Shown piece by piece: positions 370-24,278 of a stretch of 64,000 nucleotides of DNA; positions within the stretch are counted from its first letter, which is position 1; every line of letters begins with the position of its first letter. Under the pieces are notes generated by a model. The model saw only the letters and a program-made list of their open reading frames with translations, ran no database searches and was not told the DNA's origin. The translations under genes were made by a program, and so were the position numbers. Source of the stretch: Novosphingobium sp. (GTDB taxonomy: Bacteria; Pseudomonadota; Alphaproteobacteria; Sphingomonadales; Sphingomonadaceae); contig JAGREN010000050.1 of assembly GCA_020446505.1 (NCBI GenBank), positions 8,423 to 72,422 on the forward strand, read 5' to 3'.

Positions 370-1530
370 CTATCTGAACCGGCGGAAGAACTCCCGCAAG
401 TCCCCGACGATCGTATCGGGCACTTCCGCCGGGGCAAAGTGGCCGCCCTTTTCCTCGACCTTCCAGCTCTGGACGTTGTAGACCCGGTCGGCCCACTTGC
501 GCGGCAGGTTCCAGACGTCGCCCTTGAATTGCTGGACGGCCGTGGGGACATCGATAATCGGCGTCTTGTCCGGCACCTTGCCAAGCGCAATACTCTCGTC
601 ACCTGGCGGAGAGAAGTAATGCCGGGCAGAACTGAGATAGGTTTCGGTCAGCCAGTAGAGCATCACATTGTCGATCAGCTCGTCCTTGGACCAGACCGAC
701 TCGATATCGCCGCCCGTATCTCCCCAGTCGCGGCGCTTCTCGACCATCCAGGCCGCCTGGCCAACGGGGGAATCAGTCATCGCATAGGCAATGGTCATCG
801 GCTTGGTGCGCTGGATCTGCATATAGCCCGAGCCGGTTGCGTAGTAGTCCGCCATCTTGGCGCCGCCTGCGAATTCGTGCTCCTCGAAATCCTCCGGCTG
901 CGGATTGCCGCCAAGGAACGGGATAAGCAGGTGCAGATGAACCCCGGTCAGACGGTCGGGATGGGTATAGCCCAGCAGCGTCGAGATCGCCGATCCCATG
1001 TCGCCACCCTGGGTTCCGAACTTGTCATAGCCCAGCTCGTCCATCAGTTTGACGTAGTAGTCTCCGACCCGGTTAAGGCGCAGGTCAGTGGTCAAAGGAC
1101 TCGAAAAGGCAAAGCCGGGAATCGAAGGGCACACCACGTCGAACGAATCCTCCGGATCGCCGCCATAGGCCGCCGGATCGGACAGCGGGCCGATGATCCT
1201 GCGCATGTCCCAGAAGGTCCAGGGCCAGCCGTGATTGATGATCAGCGGCATCGGGTTCGGCCCCTTGCCCTTCGCATGGACGAAGTGGATCGGCACACCG
1301 TCTATGTCAGCCATGAACTGCGGCAGCTTGTTCATCTCGGCTTCGCGCCCGCGCCAGTCATAGGTGTTGAGCCAGTAATTGGTCAGCTCGCGCATGTAGG
1401 CGAGGTTCGCTCCCTGCTGCCAATTGCTGTTGTCGCCAATTTCGGCCGGCCAGCGGGTGCGTTCGAGCCGCTCGCGCAGATCGGTGAGCGCAGCGTCGGG
1501 AATTGCGATCTCAAACGGCTTGATGGTCAT
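370..1530 (-). CDS. Epoxide hydrolase (microsomal/EHN type, alpha/beta fold)
   Basis: N-terminal PFEIAIPD...L..RL...RWP, HGWP oxyanion motif, GGDMG nucleophile Asp, GGHFAPAE catalytic His. Confidence 0.93.
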   Translation of the reverse strand: MTIKPFEIAIPDAALTDLRERLERTRWPAEIGDNSNWQQGANLAYMRELTNYWLNTYDWRGREAEMNKLPQFMADIDGVPIHFVHAKGKGPNPMPLIINHGWPWTFWDMRRIIGPLSDPAAYGGDPEDSFDVVCPSIPGFAFSSPLTTDLRLNRVGDYYVKLMDELGYDKFGTQGGDMGSAISTLLGYTHPDRLTGVHLHLLIPFLGGNPQPEDFEEHEFAGGAKMADYYATGSGYMQIQRTKPMTIAYAMTDSPVGQAAWMVEKRRDWGDTGGDIESVWSKDELIDNVMLYWLTETYLSSARHYFSPPGDESIALGKVPDKTPIIDVPTAVQQFKGDVWNLPRKWADRVYNVQSWKVEEKGGHFAPAEVPDTIVGDLREFFRRFR

Positions 1531-1597
1531 GTGGCTTCCTCTCCTGCCTTGGCCGCTACAGGTATAGCTAATGATACACTGTCGTCCATATCTCTTG

Positions 1598-1614
1598 CGA
1601 TATATTGTGGATCA
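1598..1614. promoter_or_regulatory. Operator-like motif A (CGATATA-TTG-TGGATCA) in the divergent promoter
   Basis: Matches YGATAY-N4-TG(G/C)ATCA copies at 15081, 17195 and 45231 (reverse). Confidence 0.55.
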
Positions 1615-1657: not shown

Positions 1658-2500
1658 ATGAGCAACCTGACCATCAAGAAGATCGACTGGCAGTTTGACG
1701 GCATCGATTTCTACTTCAACCCGAAGCAGCGCAATTTCTCGGCCTTCAACAACATGATCAGCTTCATGGCGCCAGGGATGGAACGCTATTTCTGCAAGGC
1801 GATGAAGGATGCCGAAGAGCACATCACCGATCCGCGCGTGCTTGACGAATGCAAGGACTTCAACCGCCAGGAAATGGAACATTCCAAGGCGCATGTGAAG
1901 CATTGCAAGGCGCTGATTGCCAAATATCCCGGCCTTCAGGAAGCGCTCGACGCTTCGTTCGAGCTGTATGACGAGCATTACAAGGCTCACGATCTGAAAT
2001 ATCACCTGTCCTACATGGGCGGTCTGGAATCGGCCTTCACCCCGCTGTTCGGCACGATCATCAATCATCGCGATCAGCTGTTCGGCGGTAGCGACCCCAG
2101 AGTTTCCTCGCTTTTCCTGTGGCATTATTGCGAGGAGATCGAGCACCGCTCGTCCGCGATCACGGTCTACAACCACGTCATCGGCGACAACAGGTATCGT
2201 ATGCGCAACGTAAAGCCGATGGGCGCCCATGGCCGGATGATCAGCGAAACGCTGATGGAGATTTTCAGCCGGGCTGTTCCGGAATGGGATACGCCCGATG
2301 CGCACCTCAAGTGGGCGGATACCTTGCCCAAGTGGACGAGGCGCATGATGGGACTGAAGATCCTTGCCTCGCAGCTTCCCTATTATCCGCACCAGGCCCA
2401 GCCGCTGCCCAAGTATTTCGCGGAATGGAACCGGCGATACGAAGCGGGCGAGGATATGCGCGTGACCTATCCGGAAACGCCGCTCGCAACCGCAGCCTGA
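1658..2500 (+). CDS. 'Predicted metal-dependent hydrolase' (PF10118-like), ferritin-like diiron protein, copy 1
   Basis: ATG 1658 after GGAG. Ligand-like motifs MERYF, QEMEHSKAH, GLESAF, WHYCEEIEHRS. Paralogue at 15153. Confidence 0.82.
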   Translation: MSNLTIKKIDWQFDGIDFYFNPKQRNFSAFNNMISFMAPGMERYFCKAMKDAEEHITDPRVLDECKDFNRQEMEHSKAHVKHCKALIAKYPGLQEALDASFELYDEHYKAHDLKYHLSYMGGLESAFTPLFGTIINHRDQLFGGSDPRVSSLFLWHYCEEIEHRSSAITVYNHVIGDNRYRMRNVKPMGAHGRMISETLMEIFSRAVPEWDTPDAHLKWADTLPKWTRRMMGLKILASQLPYYPHQAQPLPKYFAEWNRRYEAGEDMRVTYPETPLATAA

Positions 2501-2524: not shown

Positions 2525-3997
2525 CTAACCCGCGCGCCAGTAGAGCGTCTCGCCGTCTTTCTCGATCCGGCCCGACGTTCCGACCGGCTCGGTCTTTCCG
2601 TCGGTCAGGAAGGCGATGGTCGCCGCGTCCTCACCCGTTACCTTGGCGACCACGCGCCGCCTGTCAGGCGTGAGCGCAACGATCGTGCCGCCTGTGGGAT
2701 CGCCCTCGCGCGAGTGGAACACGGTGTAGGTCTCGATCTCGGCCGGGCCTTCGTAGGTCTGGTCGTTGGCCGGGATCGGTCCGCGCCGCGCGTCGGCCTC
2801 GGCATCGAACCGGTAGTGCTGCGGGAACGAGACGCCCTCGACCGGCTCGGACGACAGCACCAGCGTGTGGTGGTGCGTGCAATAGCCGCCGTTACCGTAG
2901 AGCAGACCCTTGCCGCCGCCTGCCCTGAGCTTGCCGACCATCGCCGCGGTGGCGTGCATCATGTAGTTGCCGAGCGGCCCGCCACCGAAGGTCAGGCCGC
3001 CGTGGACGGTGAGCGGCTGGTCGTCGCCCACCCCCAGCGAGCGCCGTGCCATCTTGGGTACCACCGGGAAGCAGGAATAAAGCTCGATGTAGTCCATCTC
3101 GCCTGCCGAAAGGTGATTTTCCTCCAGCGCCTTTTCAAGCGAGACATCCATCGCCGGCGTTCCGGTAAAGCTGTCACGCTCCAGCGGCTCTTCCGCCTCG
3201 TAGGCCTGCGCACCAGCACCGATATAGACCAGCCGCGATTCGTCCACGCCAGCCGCACGCGCCGTGGCGAGGCTGGTGACGATCACCGCCGCGCCCTGGT
3301 TCACCGACGAATTGGCGACCTGCAGCTTGGTATAGGGAAATGACAGCGGGCGGTTATCGGCCGTCGGCGTCACGATCTCGTCTGCCTTGCGCGGCTTCTT
3401 GATCCATGCGCCTTCGGCATCGGCGGCGACTTCGGACATCTTTTCCCAGATGCGACCGGATTCGGCCTTCGCCTCGTCGAGCGACTGCCCCCAGGCCGCG
3501 CGCGTCGCGTTTTCGTAAAGTGGATAGATGTCCTGCGGAGCGGTCAGGCCGTAGCGTTGCTGTACGTCGGCCGCGACCATCGCCGCATTGCCGAACAGAC
3601 TGCCGCCACCCTGCGGGCGCTTTGCCGCCGTGCGCAGCGCCTCGCCGCCGCAAGCGATGCACACGCTCGCCTCGCCAGAGGTAACCGCGTTGGCGGCATC
3701 ACTGATAAGCTGGATCGGCGCATCGCCATAGGGCGGCTTCTCGATCCGTGTGGCGGGCGTGATCCCGAGCTGCTGAGGCAACAGCGTCAGCACGTCCATG
3801 CCGCGAAAGGCAATCTGCTGGACGTTGGCGAGCCAGTCGCACCTCTCCAGCCAGCCGCCGCCCGCATCTGCATCGGCCTTGCGAATCGCTTCGGCCATGA
3901 GGCCGACCGAATCGAGGCCCTCCATAGGATCGTCAGGGCGGTCGTTCACCTGGCCCACGCCGATGATGACGGGAATGCGGTTGGGATCGGCGGTCAT
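2525..3997 (-). CDS. Thiolase-like protein (atypical acetyl-CoA acetyltransferase family, with extra C-terminal domain)
   Basis: PVIIGVGQ start, ELYSCFP, TVHGGLTFGGGPLGNY; C-terminal extension GPAEIETYTV. Confidence 0.82.
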   Translation of the reverse strand: MTADPNRIPVIIGVGQVNDRPDDPMEGLDSVGLMAEAIRKADADAGGGWLERCDWLANVQQIAFRGMDVLTLLPQQLGITPATRIEKPPYGDAPIQLISDAANAVTSGEASVCIACGGEALRTAAKRPQGGGSLFGNAAMVAADVQQRYGLTAPQDIYPLYENATRAAWGQSLDEAKAESGRIWEKMSEVAADAEGAWIKKPRKADEIVTPTADNRPLSFPYTKLQVANSSVNQGAAVIVTSLATARAAGVDESRLVYIGAGAQAYEAEEPLERDSFTGTPAMDVSLEKALEENHLSAGEMDYIELYSCFPVVPKMARRSLGVGDDQPLTVHGGLTFGGGPLGNYMMHATAAMVGKLRAGGGKGLLYGNGGYCTHHHTLVLSSEPVEGVSFPQHYRFDAEADARRGPIPANDQTYEGPAEIETYTVFHSREGDPTGGTIVALTPDRRRVVAKVTGEDAATIAFLTDGKTEPVGTSGRIEKDGETLYWRAG

Positions 3998-4323
3998 GTC
4001 AGGTCCTCTTCCAGAATCGTGATTTGTCAGCTTGGCCGGTCATGCGTTTTCGCATCGAGCGCGATCAGTTACCCAATTGGATCGCATGATGCCACCATAT
4101 GCTTGATCTCGTAGCTCGCGATGGGACGATACCATGTAACGCGCGGCTCCTTCACCAGCCGAACGAGAAAGATCCGCGCTTCGGGCATCGAGGGCATGGC
4201 TCCGGGCGAGCGATGCGGGCAGGCACCGACAATCTGGCATGGCGGACCTCCGTGCGGACAATGCGGTCGTCGTGGCCGGGCGCGATCATGTTCGGGATGA
4301 CCTCCTGATGCCTCGGTTATGGT

Positions 4324-4728
4324 CTAGGTGTTCGACATCAGTTCGACGAGATTGCCGTCCGGATCCTTGAAATAGACCGACTGCGCCTGATTGCCTTCGT
4401 TGTCGATGCGCGGTGCCGGGCCTTCGATGATCTCGATGCCGTTCCGTTTGAGCAGTTCCTCGGCTTCCTTGATCGTGCCGCCAAAGCGGAAGCAGATGTC
4501 GACCGAGCCGGGCGTCGGCAGGTCGGCCACGAGATCGATGCCGTTGCCCTGCTGGTGAACGTTGATCCGCACTGCCCCGCCAATGATGACGGTGCGCACC
4601 AGAGTGCGTCCGTCAGGCGCGTGGTCGAACGGCACTTCGGCCCCGAACAACCGGTCATAAAACTGTGTCGTGCGCTCGACGTCGGCAACGGTGATCGCGA
4701 CGTGATCGATGAATTTCAGCAGGGCCAT
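4324..4728 (-). CDS. VOC/glyoxalase family protein (single domain)
   Basis: IDHVAITVAD and SVYFKDPDGNLVEL motifs. Confidence 0.9.
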   Translation of the reverse strand: MALLKFIDHVAITVADVERTTQFYDRLFGAEVPFDHAPDGRTLVRTVIIGGAVRINVHQQGNGIDLVADLPTPGSVDICFRFGGTIKEAEELLKRNGIEIIEGPAPRIDNEGNQAQSVYFKDPDGNLVELMSNT

Positions 4729-4860
4729 GACGAGCCGTTCCCTCTCCCGGTTGAATTAATAGGCCGACATTGCATCATTATGGACACGGCGCGCAATCCA
4801 ATACAGTATGAGCCATTGCATATCGCAGCTTTGGCTGCACTGATTCTCGGGAGAACAATC

Positions 4861-6521
<1,661 letters not shown>

Positions 6522-6525
<4 letters not shown>

Positions 6526-7433
6526 GCGCGATCAGGGAAGGCAACGTCGCCGTCATCACCGGAGCCGCCAGCGGCATCGGCTATGCGCTTGCAGAGGAAG
6601 CCTTGCGGCGCGGCATGAAGGTCGTCGTCTCCGACATACGCGAGGAGGCCCTGGCCGAAGCCGCCGCGAAGCTGACCGGACAGGGTGCGGACGTGCTCGC
6701 CGTTCTGGCTGACGTGACGAGCGAGGAAAACATCATCGCCCTGCGCGACAAGGCGCTCGAAAAGTTCGGCAAGGTCAACCTGCTGATCAACAATGCCGGC
6801 GCCTTCGTCGGCGGCCTCGCCTGGGAAACCAGCGCGCAGCAGATGGACTGGATCGTCGATCTCAACTTCAAGAGCGTCGCGCACGGCATCCGCACCTTCG
6901 TGCCGCAGATGATCGCCCAGGGCGACGAATGCCACGTCATGACCGTGGCATCGGCCGCCGGTCTTTCGGTCTATCCGGGCTATGCGACCTATTCGCCGAC
7001 CAAGCACGCGGCGCTGGCCATCACCGAGGCGCTCTATCTCGATCTCGCCGTCGAGGGCATCGACACCATCGGCGTGACGGTCATCATGCCGGGAATGGTG
7101 CGCACCGACATCATGAACCCCGAAAAGGTCAGCCCGGCGGCGCTGGGTCTGGACCGCGAGGCACGCCACGCCAACGCCACCGTGCGCGGAGTGGAAGCGA
7201 CGATGACCTCTGCGCTGGACGGGGCCATGCCGCCCGAGGAACTGGCGCGCTGCGTGTTCGATGCGGCAGATGCAGGCGAGCTCTACATCCTGCCCAACCA
7301 CGATGCCGAAGGGCCAACTTCGATGGTCAAGGCCATCGCCAACGGCAGAGCTACCGGCACCAATCCGTGGCCTGCTATCATGGGGAGCACCATGACGCGC
7401 ATGTTCGGCAAGACAGAGCCAGCCGACACCTGA
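6522..7433 (+). CDS. Short-chain dehydrogenase/reductase
   Basis: GTG start overlapping the BVMO stop (GTGA). TGAASGIG, NNAG, YSPTK. Confidence 0.92.
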
Positions 7434-7467
7434 ATGAAACGGCGCCGCGTGGCGCGGGAGAGAGAGC

Positions 7468-9243
7468 ATGACACAGCAATTCGATACGGTAATCCGGGGC
7501 GGCCTGATCGTTGACGGGACTGGCGCGGAACCCACCATCGGCGACGTTGCAATCCGTGACGGCGTGATCGTCGCGGTCGGCAAGGTGGATGGTGAGGGTG
7601 CGCAGGAAATCGACGCGACCGGCCTTGCGGTAACGCCCGGCTTCATCGACCTGCACACCCATTACGACGGGCAGGCGATCTGGTCGCAGCGGCTGAACCC
7701 CTCGTCCGGTCACGGCGTCACCACCGTGGTCATGGGCAACTGCGGCGTCGGCTTTGCGCCGTGCCGTCCGTCCGACCGCGACTTGCTCGTGATGACCATG
7801 GAAGGCGTGGAAGACATTCCCGGCGTCGTCATGGCCGAAGGGCTGACATGGGACTGGGAAACCTTCCCCGAATTCATGGCTGCGCTGGACGCACGCAAGC
7901 GCGACATCGACGTGGCCGTCTTCGCTCCCCATTCGCCAATCCGTGTCTATGCAATGGGTGATCGCGGCGCCAATCGTGAGCCGGCGTCGGCAGAAGACCT
8001 CGAAAAAATGCGCGACCTCTCGCGCGAAGCCATCGCGGCAGGTGCCATCGGCGTTGCGACCAGCCGCACCCTGATCGACCGCCGGGCAGACGGCGAGCCG
8101 GTGCCGAGCTTCGATGCACCCACCGAGGAACTGGTAGCTCTCGCCCAAGGCGTCAGAGAAGGCGGCGGCGGCCTGGTCCAAGTCTTGCCCGAGTTCGGCA
8201 TGAACGGAAATCCGCCCGAAGCGGACTTCGAAATCATGCGCTCAGTCGCACAGGCAAGCGGTTTGCCGGTAACATTCAGCATCGTGCCGGGGCGGTCCGA
8301 CAAGGCCAAGAGCTTCTGGCAGGAGCTGATGGACCTCGTGGAAAATTACAACGCCAGTGGCGAAGGCCCCAAGCTGCACCCGCAATTTGCGCCGCGCCCG
8401 GTCGGCATGCTGGCGAGCTTCGATCTCACCAGCAATCCGTGGGCCGATTGCCCGACCTACAAGGCGCTGGCGCATCTCCCGATCGAGGAGCGCGTGAAGG
8501 AACTGAGCAAGCCGGAAGTGAAGGAAAAGATCCTCACCGAAACGCCCGACGAGGCCGTCATTCCGCTCACGGCGCTGACCCGCAACAACTACCATGTGAT
8601 GTTCGAGGTTACCTCCAACCCGAAGTACGAGCCGGAACCGGGTCAGTCGATCAAGGACCGGGCCGAGGCCATGGGCGTCTCGCCCGAGAGCCTCGCCTAT
8701 GACCTGCTGCTGCAGGACAATGGCCGCAACTACCTGCTCGTCGCCTTCGGCAACTATCCCGAGGATACGCTCGACCACCTGTTCCGCTTCTACGACAATC
8801 CCGATGCCGTGATGGGGCTTGGCGACGGCGGCGCGCACTATGGCCTGATCGTCGATTCGACCTATCCGACCTTCGTGCTCCAGCACTGGGCGCGCGACCG
8901 GCAGGGCCGCAGGCTGACGCTCGCACAAGCCGTGCAGGCAATGACGTCACAGCCAGCCGCAGTCATCGGCTTCGACGACCGCGGCGTGATCGCGCCGGGC
9001 AAGAAGGCGGACATCAACGTAATCGACCACAAGGCGATCCGCATGGACGCCCCGCGCGTCGTTTCGGACCTGCCCGGCGGCGGCCGCAGGCTGGACCAGC
9101 AGGCGCACGGCTATCGCTACACGCTGGTCAATGGCGAGGTCATTCTGAAGGACGACCAGCCGACCGGCATATTTCCCGGCAAGGTCGTGAAGGGCGCGGG
9201 CGCGAAGCAAGGCGAAGCGGCTCCGGCGGAGAGCATGGCCTGA
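7468..9243 (+). CDS. N-acyl-D-amino-acid deacylase-like amidohydrolase, copy 1
   Basis: IRGGLIVDGTG, PGFIDLHTHYD, GNCG, GLGDGGAH, G.IAPGKKAD. Confidence 0.9.
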   Translation: MTQQFDTVIRGGLIVDGTGAEPTIGDVAIRDGVIVAVGKVDGEGAQEIDATGLAVTPGFIDLHTHYDGQAIWSQRLNPSSGHGVTTVVMGNCGVGFAPCRPSDRDLLVMTMEGVEDIPGVVMAEGLTWDWETFPEFMAALDARKRDIDVAVFAPHSPIRVYAMGDRGANREPASAEDLEKMRDLSREAIAAGAIGVATSRTLIDRRADGEPVPSFDAPTEELVALAQGVREGGGGLVQVLPEFGMNGNPPEADFEIMRSVAQASGLPVTFSIVPGRSDKAKSFWQELMDLVENYNASGEGPKLHPQFAPRPVGMLASFDLTSNPWADCPTYKALAHLPIEERVKELSKPEVKEKILTETPDEAVIPLTALTRNNYHVMFEVTSNPKYEPEPGQSIKDRAEAMGVSPESLAYDLLLQDNGRNYLLVAFGNYPEDTLDHLFRFYDNPDAVMGLGDGGAHYGLIVDSTYPTFVLQHWARDRQGRRLTLAQAVQAMTSQPAAVIGFDDRGVIAPGKKADINVIDHKAIRMDAPRVVSDLPGGGRRLDQQAHGYRYTLVNGEVILKDDQPTGIFPGKVVKGAGAKQGEAAPAESMA

Positions 9244-10175
9244 TGTCGGACCGCACGCTCCACCCTTTCTGCGCGACCGTCGTCGCCAACCGCAAGGAAG
9301 CGGGCATTCCCGAATATGCCTCGCTGCCTCCCGAGGGCGCGCGCGCACTCATGACCTCGGTCATGGCAGCCGCGCCGCCGCCAACCGACCTGCCCGAACT
9401 GACTGCTGTCAGCAATTTCACGATCCCCGGCCCGCATGGCGACATTCCCGTGCGACGCTACACGCCGCTTGGGGAGGCAAAGGCCACAATCGTCTATTTC
9501 CACGGTGGCGGCTGGGTTCTGGGCGATCTCGAAACCGGCGACGGCATCTGCCGCCGCTGGGCCGGGTGGGCCGGCGTCGAAGTGCTGAGCGTGGACTATC
9601 GCCTCGCGCCCGAATACCCCTTCCCCATCCCGCTCGACGAGTGCTTCGCCGGACTTGAATGGGCCGATCAGAACATGCCCCACCCGCTGTTCATCGCTGG
9701 TGACAGCGCGGGCGGCAACCTCTCCGCAGCTATCGCCATCCGCGCCCGCGACGAAGGTGGTCCGGACCTTGCCGGACAGATCGTGATCTACGGTGCGCTC
9801 GGCCTCGATTACGAGACGGCCTCCTACCGCGAAGTCGGCGACAAGGGCTGGATGCTGTCCGGCAACGACATGGAATATTTCTGGGGCCATTACCTTTCCG
9901 GCGACGGAGAAAACGGCTCTGCGCTGGCGGTTCCGCTGAACCTCAAGTCTGCTTCAGGTCTGGCTCCTGCCTTCATCTGCACCGGAGACTGCGACGTCCT
10001 GTGCGACGACAACCTGGCCTATGCCGACAAGCTGCGCGAAGCTGGCGTGCCAGTCGAACTGCGCGTCGATCCGGGCATGTTCCACGGCTACTATTCGATG
10101 ACCAGTTTCGCCGAACCGGCCAAGGCAACCGTCGACGCAACAGTGCGCTGGATCGGCGAGAGGATCGCTGCCTGA
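9243..10175 (+). CDS. Alpha/beta hydrolase, HSL-family esterase/lactonase
   Basis: HGGGW, DYRLAPE, GDSAGG, D..CDD and HG catalytic motifs. Confidence 0.93.
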   Translation: MSDRTLHPFCATVVANRKEAGIPEYASLPPEGARALMTSVMAAAPPPTDLPELTAVSNFTIPGPHGDIPVRRYTPLGEAKATIVYFHGGGWVLGDLETGDGICRRWAGWAGVEVLSVDYRLAPEYPFPIPLDECFAGLEWADQNMPHPLFIAGDSAGGNLSAAIAIRARDEGGPDLAGQIVIYGALGLDYETASYREVGDKGWMLSGNDMEYFWGHYLSGDGENGSALAVPLNLKSASGLAPAFICTGDCDVLCDDNLAYADKLREAGVPVELRVDPGMFHGYYSMTSFAEPAKATVDATVRWIGERIAA

Positions 10176-10238
10176 GAATCATAGACGCCCGCACCTGCAC
10201 GGGTTAGACCTTCGACCAAATCAACACCTGGAGAGACC

Positions 10239-11324
10239 ATGAAAGCCGCAGTCCTTCGCGAAATCAAAGCGCCGCTCACCATCGAGGACGTCGATCTCGA
10301 CGCCCCTGGCCCAGACGAGGTCCGCATCCGCGTCGTCAGCAGCGGCCTGTGCCATTCGGACTACCACTCGATCTCCGGCGACTTCCCGGTGCCCATGCCG
10401 GCCGTCCTCGGCCACGAGGCAGCGGGCGTGGTCGAAGCGGTCGGCTCGGACGTTACCGAATTCAAGAAAGGCGACGCGGTCGTCTCCTGCGTCTCGATGT
10501 ATTGCGGGCATTGCCGCGAATGCCTCGACGGGCACAACAATGTCTGCGGCGACAAGCCTTCGGCGCGCCCGGCTGACAAGCCTGCGCGCATCACCAAGGG
10601 CTCGGAAGTCTTCAACCAGTACGCCGGGCTTGGCGCCTTTGCCGAGGAAATGCTGGTCCACCGCACCGGCCTGACCAAGATCCCCGAAGGCATGCCGCTG
10701 GAAAAGGCCGGCCTGCTGGGTTGCGCCGTGCTGACCGGCGTTGGCGCTGCACTCAATGGCGCGAAGATCAGGCCCGGCAGCACCGTGGTCGTGGTCGGCG
10801 CAGGCGGCGTCGGCCTTAACGTCATTCAGGGCGCAAAGCTGGCGGGTGCGGCGCGGATCATCGCCGTCGACATCAACGAGCGCAAGTTCGACCTCGCCCG
10901 CGTCTTCGGCGCGACCGACTGCGTCAAGGGCGGGCCGGACGCCATTGCCGAGGTTAAGGAAATGACCGGCGGCGGCGCTGACTATGCCTTCGAGGTGATC
11001 GGCCTGACGCAGACGCAGGAACAGGCGCTGATGATGCTTCGCCGCCTCGGAACGCTGATGATCGTCGGCATGGCGCCGATGACGTCGCAGTTCAAGGTTT
11101 CGGGCGTGATGATGATGGCCCAGCAGCTCGAGATCAGAGGCTCGCTGATGGGTTCCGCCCCGTTCCAGATCGCCATTCCGGAATATGCGCAGCTCTATCT
11201 CGACGGCAAGCTGAAGCTCGACGAGATGATCTCCCAGAACATCAAGCTGGAAGACATCAACGACGGCTACGCCAAGATGATGGCAGGCGACGTGGCGAGG
11301 AGCGTGATCGTCTTCGACAGCTGA
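10239..11324 (+). CDS. Zn-dependent alcohol dehydrogenase
   Basis: GLCHSD, GHEAAG, CGHCRECLDGHNNVC structural Zn site, LGCAVLTG, GAGGVG. Confidence 0.95.
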   Translation: MKAAVLREIKAPLTIEDVDLDAPGPDEVRIRVVSSGLCHSDYHSISGDFPVPMPAVLGHEAAGVVEAVGSDVTEFKKGDAVVSCVSMYCGHCRECLDGHNNVCGDKPSARPADKPARITKGSEVFNQYAGLGAFAEEMLVHRTGLTKIPEGMPLEKAGLLGCAVLTGVGAALNGAKIRPGSTVVVVGAGGVGLNVIQGAKLAGAARIIAVDINERKFDLARVFGATDCVKGGPDAIAEVKEMTGGGADYAFEVIGLTQTQEQALMMLRRLGTLMIVGMAPMTSQFKVSGVMMMAQQLEIRGSLMGSAPFQIAIPEYAQLYLDGKLKLDEMISQNIKLEDINDGYAKMMAGDVARSVIVFDS

Positions 11325-11359
11325 TCGAAATCACGCCAATTTCCACGGGAGAGGAAGCC

Positions 11360-12589
11360 ATGGCGACACAAGCACAGACCGCAAGCACCCCGCCGGGCAT
11401 CGACCCGGCGCTGGTGATCGACTTCGACCTATATGACGACGCGCGCTTCGTCAGCGCGGGCGGCATTTTCGAAGCGATGGGCGAACTGCGCGACCAGGCT
11501 CCGGACGTTTTCTGGAGCACCTCGCTCGGCGGCTACTGGGTGATCCAGGGCTACGACGCCATCGTCGAGGCGGCCAAGCGCGGCGACCTGTTCACCAGCA
11601 GCAGGATGGGCATTCCGCCGACCGAGGACGATGGACGCCAGAGGCGACGACTTGCTCCCCTGAACTACGATCCGCCCGACCACGCGGCGCTGCGTTCGCC
11701 GCTCAACGCCATGTTCACGCCAGCCGCGATGAACAAGTGGTCGGGCCATATCCGCCAGCTTGCAGTCGAACTGATCGAGAAAGTCCGGCCCAATGGCAAG
11801 GCGGACATGTTCGATGAAGTGACCGAGCAGCTTCCGGTCCTGATTTTCATCGACCTGATGGGCCTGAAGCGCGAAGACTATCGCTTCTATCGCGCGCTCG
11901 CCAAGGCGGCTGTCGCCTCGCAGGATCGCGACGAGCGTTACGATGCCATGTTGCAGGCTTACCACCTGCTGAAAGGCGAGATCGCCGATCGCCGCGCCAA
12001 TCCGCGCGAAGACCTCATCAGCCGACTGCTCGATCTCGAGGTCGAGGGCGAGCCGATCACCGACGAGCTGGCGCTGGCCTATCTCGAACTGCTGTTCATT
12101 GCCGGGCTGGACACGGTCGCCAACGCCATGACCTTCGCGGTGCGCTATCTCGCCCTCGATCAGGATCTGCAACAGCGTCTGCGCGACGAGCCGGAGAAGA
12201 TCCCGCACGCGATGGAAGAACTGCTGCGCCGTCATGCGGTCGCCCCGGTAATGCGCTCGGTTACGCACGATTTCGAATGGCGCGGCTTCAATTTCCGCGC
12301 AGGCGATCCGGTGCTGCTCAACTACTCCGCCGCCAACCTCGACGAGCGCATGTTCGAACATGGCCGGGAAGTCGATGTCGATCGCGAACGCATCAACCAC
12401 GTCGCGTTCGGTGCCGGGCACCACCGCTGCCTGGGACGCAATCTCGCACGGATCGAGATCGTGATCTTCTTCGAGGAACTGCTCTCGCGCCTGCCGACCT
12501 TCCGGCTCGCGCCGGGCGAGGAGGTGCCGATGCGCGGCGGAAGCGTGATGTCGATAGGCAGGCTGCCACTGGTGTGGGACGCGAGCTGA
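11360..12589 (+). CDS. Cytochrome P450 (P450cam/CYP101-like architecture), tandem copy 1
   Basis: LVIDFDLY N-terminus, AGLDT I-helix, EELLRR, FGAGHHRCLG heme motif. Confidence 0.96.
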   Translation: MATQAQTASTPPGIDPALVIDFDLYDDARFVSAGGIFEAMGELRDQAPDVFWSTSLGGYWVIQGYDAIVEAAKRGDLFTSSRMGIPPTEDDGRQRRRLAPLNYDPPDHAALRSPLNAMFTPAAMNKWSGHIRQLAVELIEKVRPNGKADMFDEVTEQLPVLIFIDLMGLKREDYRFYRALAKAAVASQDRDERYDAMLQAYHLLKGEIADRRANPREDLISRLLDLEVEGEPITDELALAYLELLFIAGLDTVANAMTFAVRYLALDQDLQQRLRDEPEKIPHAMEELLRRHAVAPVMRSVTHDFEWRGFNFRAGDPVLLNYSAANLDERMFEHGREVDVDRERINHVAFGAGHHRCLGRNLARIEIVIFFEELLSRLPTFRLAPGEEVPMRGGSVMSIGRLPLVWDAS

Positions 12590-12608
12590 GGCAGGAGGAG
12601 CGACGGTC

Positions 12609-13832
12609 ATGGCGACACTGGCGGAACACCCCGTACCAAGGGACATCGATCCGGCGCTGGTGATCGACTACGATTTCTACGACGATGAAATCTACAGGAC
12701 CGCGGGCGGAATACCCGAAGCCATGGTCGAGCTGCGCAAGGCCGCGCCGGACGTGTTCTGGAGCACGGCACTGGGTGGCTACTGGGTCGTTCAGGGCTAC
12801 GAATCGATTGTAGACGCGGCAAAGCGCACCGACCTGTTCAGCAGCGTGAAGATGGGCATTCCCGAACGCCCCGAAGACGCGCAGATGCATCAGTCCGCGC
12901 CGCTGAACTACGACCCGCCCGACCACGCCGCCCTGCGCACGCCGCTCAACACGGTATTTACGCCAACGCAGATGTACCGCCGGGTCGACCAGATCCGGGA
13001 TCTGGCGATCGACCTGATCGAGAGTGTCGCGCCGCTTGGCAAGGCCGACATGTTCGAGGCCGTGACCGAACGGATGCCGGTGCTGATCTTCATCGACCTC
13101 ATGGGTCTGGATCGCGCCGATTTCAAAACCTACCGCACCATTGCGACGGCTGGCATCAGCTCGACCGACATGCAGGAGCGGATCGATGCCGGGCGCGAGG
13201 CGCGCCGGCTGGTTACGCAGTGCATCCGCGAACGCCGGGCCGAACCACGCGACGATCTCATCACCTATATCACCCGGATGGAAGTCAACGGCCAGCCAGT
13301 CGATGACGAACTCGCCCTGTCCTACTGCATCCTGCTGTTTTTCGCGGGGCTCGACACAGTCGCCAATGCCATGGCGTTCTGCCTGCGCTACCTCGCCATG
13401 GACCAGGACCTGCAAGCGCGCCTGCGCCGCGAGCCCGAGAAGATTCCGCATGCCATGGAAGAGCTGCTGCGCCGTCATGCCGTCGCTCCGGTACAGCGCA
13501 CCGTCATGAAGGACGAGTGCTGGCGCGGCTTCAACCTGCGCAAGGGCGACATGGCGCTGCTCAACTATCCGGCCGCCAATATCGACGAGCGGGTTTTCGA
13601 CCATGCCGACCAGGTCGACATAGATCGCGAGCGGATAAACCACATCGCATTCGGTGCAGGCGTTCACCGGTGCGCGGGCAGGCATCTGGCGCGTATCGAA
13701 ATCGTCGTGCTGCTAGAGGAACTGCTGAAGCGCATCGGTACGTTCCGGCTCGATCCGGAAGGCGAGGTCACCATGCGGGGAGGCGCAGTTCTTTCGATCG
13801 GAACCTTGCCGCTGGTGTGGGACACGAACTGA
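12609..13832 (+). CDS. Cytochrome P450, tandem copy 2
   Basis: AGLDT, EELLRR, FGAGVHRCAG. Confidence 0.96.
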   Translation: MATLAEHPVPRDIDPALVIDYDFYDDEIYRTAGGIPEAMVELRKAAPDVFWSTALGGYWVVQGYESIVDAAKRTDLFSSVKMGIPERPEDAQMHQSAPLNYDPPDHAALRTPLNTVFTPTQMYRRVDQIRDLAIDLIESVAPLGKADMFEAVTERMPVLIFIDLMGLDRADFKTYRTIATAGISSTDMQERIDAGREARRLVTQCIRERRAEPRDDLITYITRMEVNGQPVDDELALSYCILLFFAGLDTVANAMAFCLRYLAMDQDLQARLRREPEKIPHAMEELLRRHAVAPVQRTVMKDECWRGFNLRKGDMALLNYPAANIDERVFDHADQVDIDRERINHIAFGAGVHRCAGRHLARIEIVVLLEELLKRIGTFRLDPEGEVTMRGGAVLSIGTLPLVWDTN

Positions 13833-13844
13833 ATAAAGGGTACG

Positions 13845-15071
13845 ATGGCAATGGCGACACTCGCAGAACATCCGGTCCCGAAGGGCATCGACCCGTCGCT
13901 GGTTATCGACTTCGACTACTATTCGGACCGTCGCTACGGTCAGCCCGGCGGCATCCCGCAGGCGATGGCGGACTTGCGCGATGAAGCGCCGGACGCATTC
14001 TGGTCCACGGCCCTCGGTGGCTACTGGGTCGTTCAGGGGCACGAGGCCATCGTCGATGCCGCTGCGCGCACAGACCTGTTCAGCAGCGGCTACATGCGCA
14101 TACCTGCGCGGCCCGACCTGCCCGAACCACCCAAGAACATCCCGCTCCAGCTCGACCCGCCCAACCACGCCGCGTTCCGGGCACCGCTCAACAAGGTGTT
14201 CACGCCGACGCAGATGTATCGCCGGGTCGACCAGATCCGGGCGCTGGCCGTCGAACTGATCGACGCGATTGCTCCGCTGGGCGAGGCGGACTTCTTCGAT
14301 ACGGTCGCCGAGAAGCTGCCGGTGCTGATCTTCATCGACATCATGGGGCTCGATCGCGCGCATTTCCGGCAATACCGCGACATGGCCAAGGCAGCCGCGA
14401 GCGAACCCGATCAGGAGATCAGGCTCAAGGCCGTCCACGACGGCTCCGAACTTCTGGCGGGCGTGATCGCGGATCGTCGGGCCAATCCGCGCGACGATCT
14501 CATCTCCTATCTGCTCGATCTGGAGATCGAGGGCGCGCCGGTCAGCGACGACATGGTGCTCGGCTATTGCAAGCTGCTGTTCTTCGCCGGCCTCGATACC
14601 GTCGCCAATGCCATGTCCTTCATCATGTACTACCTCGCCAGGGATCAGGCGCTGCAGGAGCGGTTGCGGCGCGAGCCAGACAAGATCCCGCACGCGATGG
14701 AGGAGCTGATCCGCCGCCACGCCGTCGCCCCCGTCGTCAGGATCATCGCCAAGGACGAGGTCTGGCGCGGCCTGCCGCTGAGCAAGGGTGACATGGCGCT
14801 GCTCAACTATCCTGCCGCCAACATCGACCCGCGGGTTTTCGATCACCCGGACGAGGTCGATATCGACCGTGAGCGCATCAACCACATCGCTTTCGGCTCC
14901 GGCCCGCACCGCTGCCTCGGCCGCCATCTGGCGCGGATCGAGATGGTCGTGCTGCTGGAAGAAGCCCTGAGCCGCCTGCCGACTTTCCGTCTGGCGGAAG
15001 GCAAGCCGGTGCCCATGCGTGGCGGCGGCGTGCTGACAGTCGAATCTCTTCCGCTGGTCTGGGATCGCTGA
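13845..15071 (+). CDS. Cytochrome P450, tandem copy 3 (alternative start 13851)
   Basis: AGLDT, EELIRR, FGSGPHRCLG. Confidence 0.96.
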   Translation: MAMATLAEHPVPKGIDPSLVIDFDYYSDRRYGQPGGIPQAMADLRDEAPDAFWSTALGGYWVVQGHEAIVDAAARTDLFSSGYMRIPARPDLPEPPKNIPLQLDPPNHAAFRAPLNKVFTPTQMYRRVDQIRALAVELIDAIAPLGEADFFDTVAEKLPVLIFIDIMGLDRAHFRQYRDMAKAAASEPDQEIRLKAVHDGSELLAGVIADRRANPRDDLISYLLDLEIEGAPVSDDMVLGYCKLLFFAGLDTVANAMSFIMYYLARDQALQERLRREPDKIPHAMEELIRRHAVAPVVRIIAKDEVWRGLPLSKGDMALLNYPAANIDPRVFDHPDEVDIDRERINHIAFGSGPHRCLGRHLARIEMVVLLEEALSRLPTFRLAEGKPVPMRGGGVLTVESLPLVWDR

Positions 15072-15080
15072 TCGATTCTA

Positions 15081-15097
15081 CGATACTCGATGCATCA
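15081..15097. promoter_or_regulatory. Operator-like motif A (CGATACT-CGA-TGCATCA), overlapping the palindrome TCATAG-TGG-CTATGA at 15095-15109
   Basis: Intergenic, upstream of diiron copy 2; matches 1598, 17195 and 45231. Confidence 0.55.
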
Positions 15098-15152
15098 TAG
15101 TGGCTATGACGTACAAATTATCGAATCGAAATCGAAAAACAGGACACTGGAA

Positions 15153-15971
15153 ATGACTAACCTGGTCGTGCGCAAGATGCCGTTCGAATTCGAAGGCTGC
15201 GACTTCATCTGGAATCCGGCAAATCCCGGGTTTTCCGTGATGATGAATGCAGTTACGTTTCAGGCAATCGCGTTCGAGAAATACATCTGCAAGGCGATGA
15301 ACGCTGCCGAGAAGATTTCCCGCAAGCCCGAGATTACCGAGGAAATTCGCGCCTTCAACGCACAGGAGATGGTGCATAGCCAGGCCCACCGCAAACATGC
15401 GAAGGCGCTTGTCGACCAGTATCCCGGTCTGCAGGAGGCGCTCGATTTCTGCGATGCCGAGTACGAAAAGCTCTACGCCGAACGCGACCTGAAATATCAC
15501 CTGTCCTACTGCGCCAACATCGAGGCGACCTTCACGCCGCTGTTCGGCAACATCATCGAGCAGCGCGAGCTTCTGTTCACGGGCGGCGATCCGCGCATAT
15601 CCTCGCTGTTCCTCTGGCACTTCGTCGAAGAGATGGAACATCGGGCCTCTGCCCACGTCATCTACAACGACATCGTGCGCAATCCGTTCACGCGCTTCTT
15701 CAAATTGCGCAGCGTATTCGGTCACACCAAGGTGCTGGCCGAGAAAATCTACGAGGTGTTTCACGAGAACGTGCCTGAGTCGCGCTCCTACGGACTGGGC
15801 GAAGGCATGAACGCGATTCCCAAGCCCGTACTCAAGAAAATGCGAAACGGAATCCTCACCTCGCAAATGCCGTGGCACCGTCCCGGCAGCGCCAAGGTGC
15901 CAGCCTATTTCGAGGAATGGGTAGGGCGCTATAACGCGGGCGAAGACATGCGCTTTGCCTATTCGGCCTGA
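15153..15971 (+). CDS. 'Predicted metal-dependent hydrolase' (PF10118-like), ferritin-like diiron protein, copy 2
   Basis: Start chosen by alignment to copy 1 (MTNLVVRK vs MSNLTIKK). FEKYI, QEMVHSQAH, NIEATF, WHFVEEMEHRAS. Confidence 0.82.
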   Translation: MTNLVVRKMPFEFEGCDFIWNPANPGFSVMMNAVTFQAIAFEKYICKAMNAAEKISRKPEITEEIRAFNAQEMVHSQAHRKHAKALVDQYPGLQEALDFCDAEYEKLYAERDLKYHLSYCANIEATFTPLFGNIIEQRELLFTGGDPRISSLFLWHFVEEMEHRASAHVIYNDIVRNPFTRFFKLRSVFGHTKVLAEKIYEVFHENVPESRSYGLGEGMNAIPKPVLKKMRNGILTSQMPWHRPGSAKVPAYFEEWVGRYNAGEDMRFAYSA

Positions 15972-16009
15972 CAGGCAAAACCAGAGAACATCACCTTCCG
16001 GAGAGATAC

Positions 16010-17155
16010 ATGGCATTTGAAGCACGCCCGTTCACTGTCGAAATTCCCCAGTCCGAACTCGACGATCTCGCCAAGCGGCTCGATCTGGTGCGCTGGCCCG
16101 AAAAGGAGACGGTGACCGACTGGACGCAGGGCGTTCCGCTGGCCGAGGCACGGCGTGTCGTCGATTATTGGCGCAACAGCTACGACTGGCGACGGTGCGA
16201 GGCGCAGATCAATTCGCACGACAACTTCCTTGCCGAGATCGACGGTCTGGACATCCATTTCATCCATGTCCGCTCGAAGCACGAGGATGCCCTGCCGCTG
16301 ATCCTTACGCATGGCTGGCCCGGATCGGTGATCGAGTTCCTCAATGTCATCGCCCCGCTAACCGATCCCACCGCGCACGGCGGCACGGCAGATCAGGCGT
16401 TCCATGTCGTGATCCCCTCGCTGCCGGGCTATGGCTTTTCCGGCAAGCCGACGGGGACCGGCTGGGGCGTGCAGCACACGTCCGAAGCCTGGCACAAACT
16501 GATGCTCGGCCTCGGTTACGACCGCTATGTCGCGCAGGGCGGCGACTGGGGTTCGGCAGTTACCACGGCAATGGCGATCAACAGGCCGGAAGGTCTGGCC
16601 GGGATCCATCTCAACATGATCGTCGGGGCGCCGCGCACCGATACGCAGATGGCCGATCTCACCGACGATGAGAAAGCCAAGCTGCAAAAGATGCAACACT
16701 GGAGCGCGAAGGAACGCGGCTATTCGGAGGAACAGTCCACCAAGCCGCAGACGCTTGGCTATTCGCTGGTCGATTCGCCGGTCGGGCAGGCCATGTGGAT
16801 CTACGAAAAATTCCACGGCTGGACCGACCGCACGACGGACAGCCCTGCCGACTCGTTCTCGCTCGACGAGATCCTCGACAACATCATGGTCTACTGGCTG
16901 ACCGCCACCGGCGCGTCATCGGCGCGCATGTACTGGGAGAGCCTGAACAAGTGGCCGAGCGACATGAACGATCTGCCAACGGCATACAGCGCTTTTCCCG
17001 GCGAAATCTTCGTTCCGGCGCGGCGCTGGGTCGAAAATCGCCATTCGAATATCGTCTATTGGGGTGAGCTCGACAAAGGCGGACACTTTGCCGCTTTCGA
17101 ACAGCCGGAAGCCTTCGTGGCCGAACTGCGCAAGGCCTTTGCAACCATGCGTTGA
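16010..17155 (+). CDS. Epoxide hydrolase (microsomal/EHN type), copy 2
   Basis: HGWPGS, GGDWGS, SSARMYWE, GGHFAAFE. Confidence 0.94.
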   Translation: MAFEARPFTVEIPQSELDDLAKRLDLVRWPEKETVTDWTQGVPLAEARRVVDYWRNSYDWRRCEAQINSHDNFLAEIDGLDIHFIHVRSKHEDALPLILTHGWPGSVIEFLNVIAPLTDPTAHGGTADQAFHVVIPSLPGYGFSGKPTGTGWGVQHTSEAWHKLMLGLGYDRYVAQGGDWGSAVTTAMAINRPEGLAGIHLNMIVGAPRTDTQMADLTDDEKAKLQKMQHWSAKERGYSEEQSTKPQTLGYSLVDSPVGQAMWIYEKFHGWTDRTTDSPADSFSLDEILDNIMVYWLTATGASSARMYWESLNKWPSDMNDLPTAYSAFPGEIFVPARRWVENRHSNIVYWGELDKGGHFAAFEQPEAFVAELRKAFATMR

Positions 17156-17194: not shown

Positions 17195-17211
17195 TGATAC
17201 GGCATGGATCA
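17195..17211. promoter_or_regulatory. Operator-like motif A (TGATACG-GCA-TGGATCA)
   Basis: Intergenic, upstream of deacylase copy 2; 14/17 identical to the reverse site at 45231. Confidence 0.55.
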
Positions 17212-17252: not shown

Positions 17253-19019
17253 ATGTTCGATACGATCATCAGGGGCGGCAAGATCGCCGATGGCAGCGGC
17301 GACGACAGCTTCAACGCCGATATCGCCATCAAGGACGGCGTCATTGCCGAAATCGGCAAGGTTTCCGGCACTGCCACCAACGAGATCGACGCCGATGGCG
17401 CCCTGGTCACTCCCGGCTTCATCGACCTTCACACCCACTACGACGGCCAGTTCGTCTGGGACGACACCATCGACCCCAGCTTCTCGCATGGCGTGACCAC
17501 GGCGATCGGCGGCAACTGCGGCGTCGGCTTCGCCCCGGTCGAAAAGGAATTCCGGCGTCCGCTGGTCGAAATGATGGAAGGCGTCGAGGAAATCCCCGGC
17601 ATCGTCATCGACGAAGGACTGGACTGGAACTGGCGCAGCTTCGGCGACTATCTCGATCGCCTTGAGCAGAACAGGTTCTCGATGGACGTCGCCAGCCACA
17701 TCACCCACGCGCCGCTGCGCGTGTTCGCGATGGGCGAACGCGCCATCAACCACGAGAAGGCGACTCCCGAAGACATCGAAGTCATGGCCCGCCTCGTGCG
17801 CGAAGCCATGGATGCGGGCGCGGTCGGCTTTTCGAGCGGTCGGCTGCTTGAGCACCTGTCCAGCATTGGCGATCACGTGCCCGGCACCTTTGCCAATGAC
17901 GACGAACTGCTCGCCATCGCCAGCGCCATGGGCTCATCGGGCCACGGCGTGTTCCAGATGATCCCCAAGGGCGCGATCGGCAACATCATCGATCAGGACG
18001 ACATGACCAACAACCGGGTCGCCGAGATGGAGCGTCTGGTTCGCCTGACTCGCGCAGCGGGCCGTCCTTCGACCTACACGGTCATCGAGTTCTCCGACGA
18101 GCCGGAAAACCGCAAGTTCCTCGTCAGCGAAACCGACCGTATCCTCAAGGAAAACCCATCGCTCGAGATGCACCCGCAATGCGCCTCGCGCGGTGTCGGC
18201 TCGATCATGATGCTCGATTCGCATCACCCCTTCAAGTTCAAGCCCGCCTACCTCGAGATCGAAGGCCTGCCAGCGGCGCAGCGTGCCACGGCGATGCGCG
18301 ACCCGGCGCGGCGCGCGGCCATTCTCTCTCAGGAAGATGCTCCGCCCGCGGGCAGCGACCCGATGATCGTGCGGATGGTTTCGCGCATGCCGATGACTTC
18401 GCCCAGGTTCATCCTGATCCGCGATCGCGTGGACTACGAACCGCTGCCCGATCAGACGATCGGCGCGCTTGCCGCCGCTGCGGGCGTGACTCCGCTCGAA
18501 TACCTCTACGATCACATCACTGCTGGCGACGGCACCAATTCCGCGATCTCGTTCTTCCTCAACTACAACGAGGGCAACCTCGACGAAACCTACGAGATGA
18601 TGTCCAACCCCAATGTCATCAGCGGCCTCGGGGACGGCGGTGCGCACGTCCGTCTGATCTGCGACGCCTCGCAGACGACCTTCCAGCTCGCCTTCTGGAC
18701 TCGCGATCGCACGCGCGGCCCGAAGCTGCCGCTCGAATATGTCGTCCGCAAGATGACGCACGACAGCGCGCGGCTCTACGGCATGAACGACCGTGGCCTG
18801 CTCAAGGTCGGCAAGCGGGCGGACATCAATATCCTGGACTACGAAAACCTGAACGTCGGCGTGCCGAAGATGTATTTCGACCTGCCGAGCGGCGCGCCGC
18901 GCATGCATCAGCCTTCGACCGGCTATCTCGCCACCATGGTCAACGGTGAGGTTACGCGCCGCAACGATGCTGACACCGGTGCTCGTCCGGGCCGCCTCTA
19001 TCGCAGCCGCCCGAACTGA
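17253..19019 (+). CDS. N-acyl-D-amino-acid deacylase-like amidohydrolase, copy 2
   Basis: PGFIDLHTHYD, GGNCG, GLGDGGAH, G.LKVGKRAD. Confidence 0.9.
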   Translation: MFDTIIRGGKIADGSGDDSFNADIAIKDGVIAEIGKVSGTATNEIDADGALVTPGFIDLHTHYDGQFVWDDTIDPSFSHGVTTAIGGNCGVGFAPVEKEFRRPLVEMMEGVEEIPGIVIDEGLDWNWRSFGDYLDRLEQNRFSMDVASHITHAPLRVFAMGERAINHEKATPEDIEVMARLVREAMDAGAVGFSSGRLLEHLSSIGDHVPGTFANDDELLAIASAMGSSGHGVFQMIPKGAIGNIIDQDDMTNNRVAEMERLVRLTRAAGRPSTYTVIEFSDEPENRKFLVSETDRILKENPSLEMHPQCASRGVGSIMMLDSHHPFKFKPAYLEIEGLPAAQRATAMRDPARRAAILSQEDAPPAGSDPMIVRMVSRMPMTSPRFILIRDRVDYEPLPDQTIGALAAAAGVTPLEYLYDHITAGDGTNSAISFFLNYNEGNLDETYEMMSNPNVISGLGDGGAHVRLICDASQTTFQLAFWTRDRTRGPKLPLEYVVRKMTHDSARLYGMNDRGLLKVGKRADINILDYENLNVGVPKMYFDLPSGAPRMHQPSTGYLATMVNGEVTRRNDADTGARPGRLYRSRPN

Positions 19020-19038
19020 TCATACCCTGAAACACAGC

Positions 19039-19070
19039 GCGGCCAGTCTGCCTTACGGCGGGCTGGCCGC
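19039..19070 (+). terminator. GC-rich stem-loop (probable terminator or intercistronic hairpin)
   Basis: GCGGCCAGTCTGCC-TTAC-GGCGGGCTGGCCGC, followed by AGTCATTTT. Confidence 0.55.
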
Positions 19071-19091
19071 AGTCATTTTGGCGAGAGACGC

Positions 19092-20105: not shown

Positions 20106-20118
20106 GGACAAAAGCGCG

Positions 20119-24136: not shown

Positions 24137-24207
24137 AGACCATCCTTTTTCTGCCGCAGGGCGCGTCCGGATACAGCAGGGATCGACTGGATTCGCATGG
24201 GCAAGCC

Positions 24208-24226
24208 TTATTGAGTGTCCTTTATT
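24208..24226. promoter_or_regulatory. Operator-like motif B (reverse strand AATAAAGGACACTCAATAA)
   Basis: 15/19 match to the copy at 35668; lies in the divergent promoter of regulator 1. Confidence 0.5.
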
Positions 24227-24278
24227 ATTGCAAACCCCGAATGATCCTGCAATGACGCAGCGCAACATGGAGGCAGGC

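Follow-up and report, generated by a model that had tools for sequence, protein, structure and literature searches.

A conserved 17-bp dyad, most likely a TetR-type operator, in promoters of PF10118, epoxide hydrolase, amidohydrolase and BVMO genes of an uncultured Novosphingobium

Known pairs of TetR repressors and operators in catabolic operons include CamR (of the camphor operon of Pseudomonas putida), PsrA and KstR, and it is usual for TetR repressors of such operons to be released by a ligand, a compound of the pathway that they control. The operators of FadR-subfamily GntR regulators (FadR, PdhR and LldR) follow the consensus TNGT-N(0-3)-ACNA. Here we describe a 64 kb stretch of DNA (the window) from an uncultured wastewater Novosphingobium; the sequencing runs in which it was found are DNA runs from activated sludge, with no RNA run among them. 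A sequence-only reading of this DNA had proposed that a 17-bp repressor site recurs before its oxidative entry genes and had named two GntR proteins as candidate binders. We followed that site, which we call motif A, through the window, through its relatives and through distant loci with homologous genes.

Gene assignments were made by Pfam scans of the window and revealed a large catabolic island; the features that concern motif A are collected in Table 1. Motif A is an imperfect 17-bp dyad of the form yGATAy-N4-TGGmTCA. It was found in the promoter regions of three conserved units, with one further lineage-specific internal site before PF10118 protein 2. The first unit is PF10118 protein 1, probably together with the divergent epoxide hydrolase 1, the second comprises the glyoxalase-TLP1 genes and the divergent BVMO1 operon, and the third is amidohydrolase 2-oxidoreductase-EthD, beyond which many CoA-dependent enzymes are encoded. 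The long gene run that starts with BVMO1 continues with an SDR, amidohydrolase 1, an esterase, an ADH, three P450s, PF10118 protein 2 and epoxide hydrolase 2. Non-coding DNA of 326 bp (3998-4323) separates the glyoxalase gene from that of TLP1. The same place in relatives holds a Coq4-like gene (L007), a P450 gene (L006) or only 22 bp (L003), and a tblastn search of the window gap detected no remnant of a Coq4-like gene.

Table 1. Motif A sites and neighbouring genes in the 64 kb window
Feature	Position	Strand	Context
Motif A site 1, CGATATATTGTGGATCA	1598-1614	+	epoxide hydrolase 1 / PF10118 protein 1 divergent region
Motif A site 2, CGATACTCGATGCATCA	15081-15097	+	81-nt gap between third P450 and PF10118 protein 2
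Motif A site 3, TGATACGGCATGGATCA	17195-17211	+	41 nt before amidohydrolase 2
Motif A-like site 4, TGATACCGCATGGTGCA	45231-45247	-	about 100 nt before BVMO2; doubtful
Motif A site 5, CGATATGCAATGGCTCA	4809-4825	-	glyoxalase/BVMO1 divergent region
Half-site A', TGATACACTGTCGTCCA	1572-1588	+	left half is TGATACA; right half ends GTCCA
Epoxide hydrolase 1 (EHN + alpha/beta hydrolase)	370-1530	-	divergent from site 1
PF10118 'Metal_hydrol' protein 1 ('diiron' in the sequence-only reading)	1658-2500	+	downstream of site 1
Glyoxalase-fold protein (4324-4728) and thiolase-like TLP1 (2525-3997)	2525-4728	-	faced by site 5
Gene run from BVMO1 to epoxide hydrolase 2	4861-17155	+	site 5 just upstream, site 2 internal
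Amidohydrolase 2, zinc-type oxidoreductase, EthD protein	17253-20481	+	downstream of site 3
BVMO2	43458-45128	-	Pfam
GntR/FCD regulator 1	23384-24139	-	Pfam
GntR/FCD regulator 2	47612-48442	+	Pfam

All four 17-mers listed in the sequence-only reading were found exactly where it had placed them. Its weaker fifth site, given as 4799 on the plus strand, exists, but the minus strand gives the better reading, as site 5, where it shows one mismatch to the core pattern GATAYNNNNTGSATCA and scores 23-25 bits. The distance to the start codon is 41-55 nt for sites 1, 2 and 3 (43 nt from site 1 to PF10118 protein 1) and about 80-100 nt for sites 5 and 4; site 5 lies 80 nt from the glyoxalase start and 36 nt from the BVMO1 start. 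An invariant TTG (1595-1597) precedes site 1. Half-site A' retains TGATAC in five of nine lineages and GTCCA in eight of nine, and this GTCCA may be what remains of a TGGACA/TGTCCA operator or may serve the hydrolase promoter as its -35 element. Just 3' of site 2 (15115-15137) the window carries a short run of ATCGAA-like units (tatcgaatcgaaatcgaaaaa), which is absent from relatives.

The pattern proposed in the sequence-only reading had four matches in the window against 0.02 expected from shuffled sequence, a ratio to be read with the pattern being post hoc and fitted to those same sites. Matrices from other sources recovered the same positions. When the matrix was built from the site 1 orthologues of other assemblies only, 4809(-), 17195 and 15081 took ranks 2-4 among the ~128,000 positions of the window. 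The same ranks went to 15081, 1598 and 17195 when orthologues of the 4809 site supplied the matrix. A third matrix, made only from palindromes of distant TetR-bearing clusters (described below), had 15081, 1598, 17195 and 1572 as its top four positions in the window. All these matches were intergenic, and intergenic DNA makes up 5.7% of the window. A matrix whose training set consisted of the conserved sites alone gave the five sites 27.2, 25.3, 23.1, 18.0 and 13.4 bits, and the best match in coding DNA reached 11.5 bits, so that site 4 (13.4 bits) stands just above it. The 18.0 bits of site 2 were obtained with a matrix that excluded this site, which was also the top match of the distant-palindrome matrix. 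In ~1.1 Mb of loci from unrelated lineages only one match of at least 18 bits was detected outside TetR-alpha clusters, and the other promoters within the window lacked motif A. We put the probability that motif A is a transcription-factor operator at roughly 0.85.

Syntenic loci were gathered by protein identity and by collection scans, and the nearest relatives proved to be uncultured Novosphingobium from lakes and sludge. Site 1 was kept in eight other lineages (L001, L003, L005, L006, L007, L033, L036 and L037), its counterpart in L006 being CGATCTATCATGTATCA. Across the nine lineages, in which the PF10118 protein has 63-83% identity, the sequence cTTG-CGAwAy-A-nnn-TGGATCA-TA was retained between flanks that could not be aligned, and the bases TTG, CGA, TG and ATCA were invariant. 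Conservation extended over four lineages for site 5, which was kept in L003/L034, L007/L035 and L033, and over six for site 3, which was found at the same position in L009/L021, L018/L019, L020, L022 and L023 in the conserved form TTGATAC-N5-yGGmTCATTTG. Site 2 was lineage-specific: the P450 and PF10118-2 genes overlap in L009/L021, and L019 has a 132-nt gap without the motif. Site 4 was absent from the five orthologous BVMO2/ECH intergenic regions (L010, L012, L013, L014 and L015), which have unrelated sequence at that place and keep other blocks, including TCCGTAAnTACGG.

Conservation in orthologous promoters was thus seen for sites 1, 5 and 3, amid diverged flanks, but not for sites 2 and 4. 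This narrows the earlier proposal that the diiron/EH pairs and the BVMOs form one regulon. A shared cis site does exist, and the link to BVMO1 is upheld by position, the palindrome of distant relatives heading a TetR-BVMO1-SDR-amidohydrolase-ADH operon. The site before the second diiron/EH copy (15081) is present in the window, but in this lineage only, and the BVMO2 site (45231) is an unconserved match of 13.4 bits; BVMO2 is probably outside the regulon. The small regulon with a shared operator is real.

Near-perfect 17-bp palindromes were detected in four distant loci when 80 loci encoding PF10118 homologues were scanned (an alignment-based collection scan). Two of these loci belong to uncultured Alphaproteobacteria (L041 and L058), one to another Novosphingobium (L044) and one to Caulobacteraceae (L061); TGATACAAATTGTATCA, TGATACACAATGTTTCA and TGATACATCGTGTTTCA are examples of their palindromes. 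Genes for PF10118-2-like, epoxide hydrolase 2-like, BVMO1, SDR, amidohydrolase 1 and ADH proteins are present in the four loci, with identities of 55-66%. The palindrome occupies two places in them, the hydrolase/PF10118 divergent region and the position directly upstream of an operon that begins with or contains a gene for a TetR_N (PF00440) protein of 223-259 aa. In L041, L044 and L058 it heads a TetR-BVMO1 operon. As site 5 is the positional counterpart of that palindrome, it may control both divergent units, glyoxalase-TLP1 and the BVMO1 operon.

We named the TetR subfamily of these loci TetR-alpha, and a collection scan with its alignment yielded 43 loci. Orthologues (59-100% identity) have a TGATACA-type palindrome ~97 nt before the TetR gene; in L117 the palindrome lies ~1100 nt before it, upstream of an intervening PF10118 gene. 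Paralogues (44-54%) are encoded in a two-gene unit, an amidohydrolase-like gene followed by the TetR gene, with TGTTACA-N3-TGTAACA ~55 nt before the amidohydrolase gene (about -1850 from the co-transcribed TetR). A palindrome with at most three mismatches occurred at one of these fixed offsets in 27 of the 43 TetR-alpha loci, and the control, 369 kb of unrelated loci, gave seven scattered matches. The arrangement of TetR-alpha and palindrome was observed again in a metagenome scan. The TetR gene is adjacent to the operator or co-transcribed from it in L041, L044, L058, L061 and L113-L117, and the operator of the alpha loci can be written as TG(A/T)TACA-N3-TGTA(T/A)CA. The best PDB and NCBIfam matches of the subfamily cover the HTH only, with no characterised or solved member among them, and a text search of the literature with the half-site words and TetR gave nothing relevant. 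The unit of amidohydrolase and TetR-alpha paralogue (L119-L155 and L193-L205) is widespread in Alphaproteobacteria, Gammaproteobacteria and Nocardia, and its Amidohydro_3-like gene shows ~28% identity to the copies in the window.

A second type of regulator gene, TetR-beta, was found between the epoxide hydrolase and PF10118 genes of ~18 alphaproteobacterial loci (among L038-L087, e.g. L042 7880-8000). These loci lack motif A and carry a tandem TGGACA-N3-TGTCCA, exact in 13 of the 18. Since alpha and beta loci carry different palindromes, the type of operator tracks the type of TetR. The matrix from the window clade in turn detects TetR-alpha operators. This tracking and the reciprocal matrix matches together argue that motif A is a degenerate, asymmetric operator of the TetR-alpha type, and letter by letter it reads as a degenerate form of TGATACA-N3-TGTATCA: the left half (y)GATAC(r) nearly matches TGATACA, and the right half TGGmTCA appears to be TGTATCA with G/C at position 13. 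The site 3 dyad, TGATnC-N5-GnATCA, pairs at five of eight positions. The TACA/TGTA core, which all TetR-alpha operators keep, is altered in sites 1 and 5, and the consistent G at position 13 in the clade (TGG, not TGT) suggests that the specificity of the regulator has shifted. On the strength of co-localisation we hold, with moderate confidence, that the binder of motif A would be a TetR-family repressor related to TetR-alpha.

Some half-sites of the beta type are left in the window clade, namely GTCCA at 1585-1589 near site 1 and ATGGACA at ~4771-4777 near BVMO1, and in L006 a complete TGGACATAGCGTCCA survives upstream of BVMO1 (14053-14067). In a more distant Sphingomonadaceae locus (L024, 5129-6000), epoxide hydrolase 2 and amidohydrolase 2 are separated by an inserted TetR-beta-like gene. 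This region has lost motif A and has in its stead AT-rich DNA that contains the inverted repeat TTCACT-N6-AGTGAA.

The window contains no PF00440 or TetR gene, and tblastn detected no TetR homologue in the loci of close relatives (L001-L037) apart from the TetR-beta gene of L024. The flanks of the cluster in relatives gave the same result: no TetR homologue was present in ~12 kb to the right, and in ~20 kb to the left the only regulators were of the IclR and XRE types, next to isocitrate lyase. The list of protein homologues contained only distant PF10118 clusters and no TetR in the clade, and collection scans with the TetR alignment were likewise negative for the clade. A scan for signature peptides of TetR-alpha returned no locus from six related Novosphingobium assemblies, which is a weak negative because those assemblies are incomplete and exact 8-mers were needed. 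Since the TetR gene is missing from the window and from the clusters of close relatives, the regulator is probably encoded elsewhere, and it would act on motif A in trans from another location in the genome. It is a matter of speculation whether a shifted recognition helix lies behind both the changed half-site and the failed signature scan.

The same absence of a cognate TetR gene from the clade is compatible with a regulator of another family that is encoded elsewhere, for example an IclR-type protein. The boxes of KdgR-type IclR proteins have similar half-sites (TGAAACA/TGTTTCA), an IclR gene lies ~17 kb upstream of the cluster in one relative, and TGGATCA, the half-site specific to the clade, differs from the core of TetR-alpha operators. 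However, KdgR boxes differ in the spacing of their half-sites, motif A was found neither near the IclR gene nor elsewhere within the 20 kb on the left side, and co-localisation in other lineages points to TetR. We consider a binder from another family unlikely.

When window 370-20481 was compared with L039-L087 and L041/L058/L061, the genes of the cluster were seen to occur elsewhere as two separate modules. The beta-type module comprises epoxide hydrolase 1, PF10118-1 and amidohydrolase 2, and the alpha-type module comprises PF10118-2, epoxide hydrolase 2, BVMO1, SDR, amidohydrolase 1 and ADH. The cluster of the window, from which both TetR genes are absent, looks like a fusion of the two. 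Its history could be one in which both cis-encoded TetR genes were lost, the alpha-derived operator spread and one trans-acting regulator remained, which we rate as rather improbable. In such a history the ancestral control would have been by TGGACA palindromes for the beta module and by TGATACA for the alpha module, and the alpha-derived operator, with its half-site shifted to TGGATCA, would have spread to the promoters of the beta module. The trans regulator might then be a non-homologous protein that captured the operator, such as GntR-1.

Binding of motif A by either GntR/FCD regulator of the window, as the sequence-only reading had proposed, has some points in its favour: this pair are the only regulators found in the 64 kb, the GntR-1 gene lies 4.4 kb downstream of the amidohydrolase-2 unit, and GntR-1-like paralogues are found near paralogous amidohydrolase pairs with a yGATACA half-motif. 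Yet motif A has an AC...GT arrangement (ATAC-N5-GGAT; ancestral ACA-N3-TGT) and not GT-Nx-AC, and the promoters of the regulators themselves carry other motifs. The GntR-1/SDR divergent promoter has a different conserved motif of the AATAGAGG-N3-CCTCTATT type, the promoter of the GntR-2 operon has the conserved palindrome TCCGTAATTACGG (45314-45326), which fits GT-Nx-AC, and 45231, the sole site near GntR-2 that resembles motif A, is unconserved. Furthermore, L041, L044, L058 and L061 contain the same palindrome and a TetR gene but no GntR homologue, and L024 has kept GntR-1 but lost site 3. Because the GT-Nx-AC core is absent, the promoters of their own genes differ, the palindrome occurs in GntR-free loci and L024 shows the pattern just described, the GntR proteins are poor candidates, and we judge their binding of motif A very unlikely.

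The palindrome of the AATAGAGG-N3-CCTCTATT type has two copies in the acyl-CoA ligase / MaoC divergent region (35611-35631 and 35666-35686) and a degenerate copy in the GntR-1/SDR divergent region (24205-24232), a region that is well conserved in L009; this palindrome is probably the operator of GntR-1. In the BVMO2/ECH intergenic region the blocks ATCATTGATCGCGCGCAAA, TCCGTAATTACGG, GCAATyATCTAACC and CTGTGCCAGAGCC are kept in five orthologous loci, TCCGTAATTACGG lying upstream of the operon that contains GntR-2 and the other block coordinates being 45262-45278, 45331-45343 and 45355-45367. Loci L026-L031, from the same Novosphingobium assemblies, represent a paralogous cluster with a GntR-1-like gene and two amidohydrolase paralogues. 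A conserved gaaAyGATACAnGGyAGACCg is present between the two amidohydrolase genes (~7800-7830), and TTAGACCATTGTCTTATC is present upstream of the GntR-1-like gene.

A TTG precedes or overlaps every conserved site (TTGCGATA at site 1, CTGCGATA at site 5 and TTGATAC at site 3). Site 3 overlaps the sigma-70-like TTGATA-17-TATGGT, and a scan for E. coli-type promoters gave a match at this site only, with no consensus match at sites 1 and 5. The TTG, the sigma-70-like match of site 3 and the lack of a TetR gene in the cluster could be accounted for without any dedicated regulator, motif A being either a promoter architecture (-35 TTG and spacer) common to strongly expressed genes or a relic of operators whose TetR vanished. 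However, GATAy-N5-GGmTCA keeps its internal spacing, while its register to TTG in site 3 is offset by 2 nt from that in sites 1/5, which argues that the motif is an entity apart from the promoter hexamers. TGGATCA, which lies in the spacer, is as conserved as TTG, although promoters need no such spacer bases, and the remaining promoters of the window do without the motif. Neutral decay is argued against by conservation across the 63-83% range of protein identity. The absence of a dedicated regulator is, in our judgement, quite improbable.

The (C/G)TATG that had been put forward as a -10 element does follow the three forward sites of the window, yet it is not conserved in orthologues, where only TA remains, 17 nt from TTG. 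A plain sigma-70 promoter was rejected on account of the conserved TGGATCA in the spacer, the shift in register and the retention of only TA in the putative -10. Inspection by eye also disposed of a sigma-54 promoter (GG-N10-GC), an extended -10 and an 11-bp direct repeat (OmpR/PhoB-like), the required bases or spacing of which are not kept in orthologues.

We return to motif A as the operator of a TetR-type protein. Its earlier description as a repressor site is in keeping with our results, as an overlap with a TTG-type -35 and spacer suits a repressor. A dimeric repressor bound to motif A would cover the -35 TTG and the spacer and would block RNA polymerase; at BVMO1 the bound repressor would cover the start region. 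A substrate or intermediate of the pathway would then release it. Such a mechanism would be an ordinary one, since catabolic clusters are commonly controlled by TetR repressors that bind operators in their promoters. The regulon links the uncharacterised trio of PF10118 protein, epoxide hydrolase and amidohydrolase with the BVMO-P450 operon, and its being shared and conserved supports the view that the trio and the operon act in one pathway. The assignment of the regulator is corrected from GntR to, most likely, a TetR-type protein, and the operator together with the candidate TetR subfamily offers a handle for finding the inducing substrate. What is new is a consensus for the operator of a TetR subfamily that is so far uncharacterised, its tie to the set of PF10118, epoxide hydrolase, amidohydrolase and BVMO genes and its persistence in a clade whose cluster no longer holds the regulator gene, the operator having outlived the loss of its neighbour.

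Compared with the operators of the FadR subfamily, motif A is likewise a short dyad near CoA-linked catabolic promoters, in a window with GntR/FCD genes, but its core dinucleotides are reversed, the GntR promoters carry other motifs and the motif occurs elsewhere without GntR genes. The CamR, PsrA and KstR systems resemble it in form: they too have a palindrome of ~17 bp with two 7-bp half-sites in or near the promoters of catabolic oxygenase operons, and in the distant relatives the TetR gene sits under the same palindrome, where it would be autoregulated. Unlike in these systems, the regulator gene of the window is not in cis and the operator is asymmetric (TGATAC / TGGATCA). From the TetR-alpha operators motif A differs in having G/C in place of T at position 13, in overlapping a TTG -35, whereas the TetR-alpha palindrome runs across a TACAnn -10 placed 17 nt downstream of TTTACG, and in the TetR gene, which is adjacent in the TetR-alpha loci and absent in the window. 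With the same operators (TGATACA-N3-TGTnTCA in L041, L044, L058 and L061) it shares its length, its left half-site and its positions, both at the PF10118/epoxide hydrolase pair and at the BVMO1 operon; the matrix matches between the two are reciprocal.
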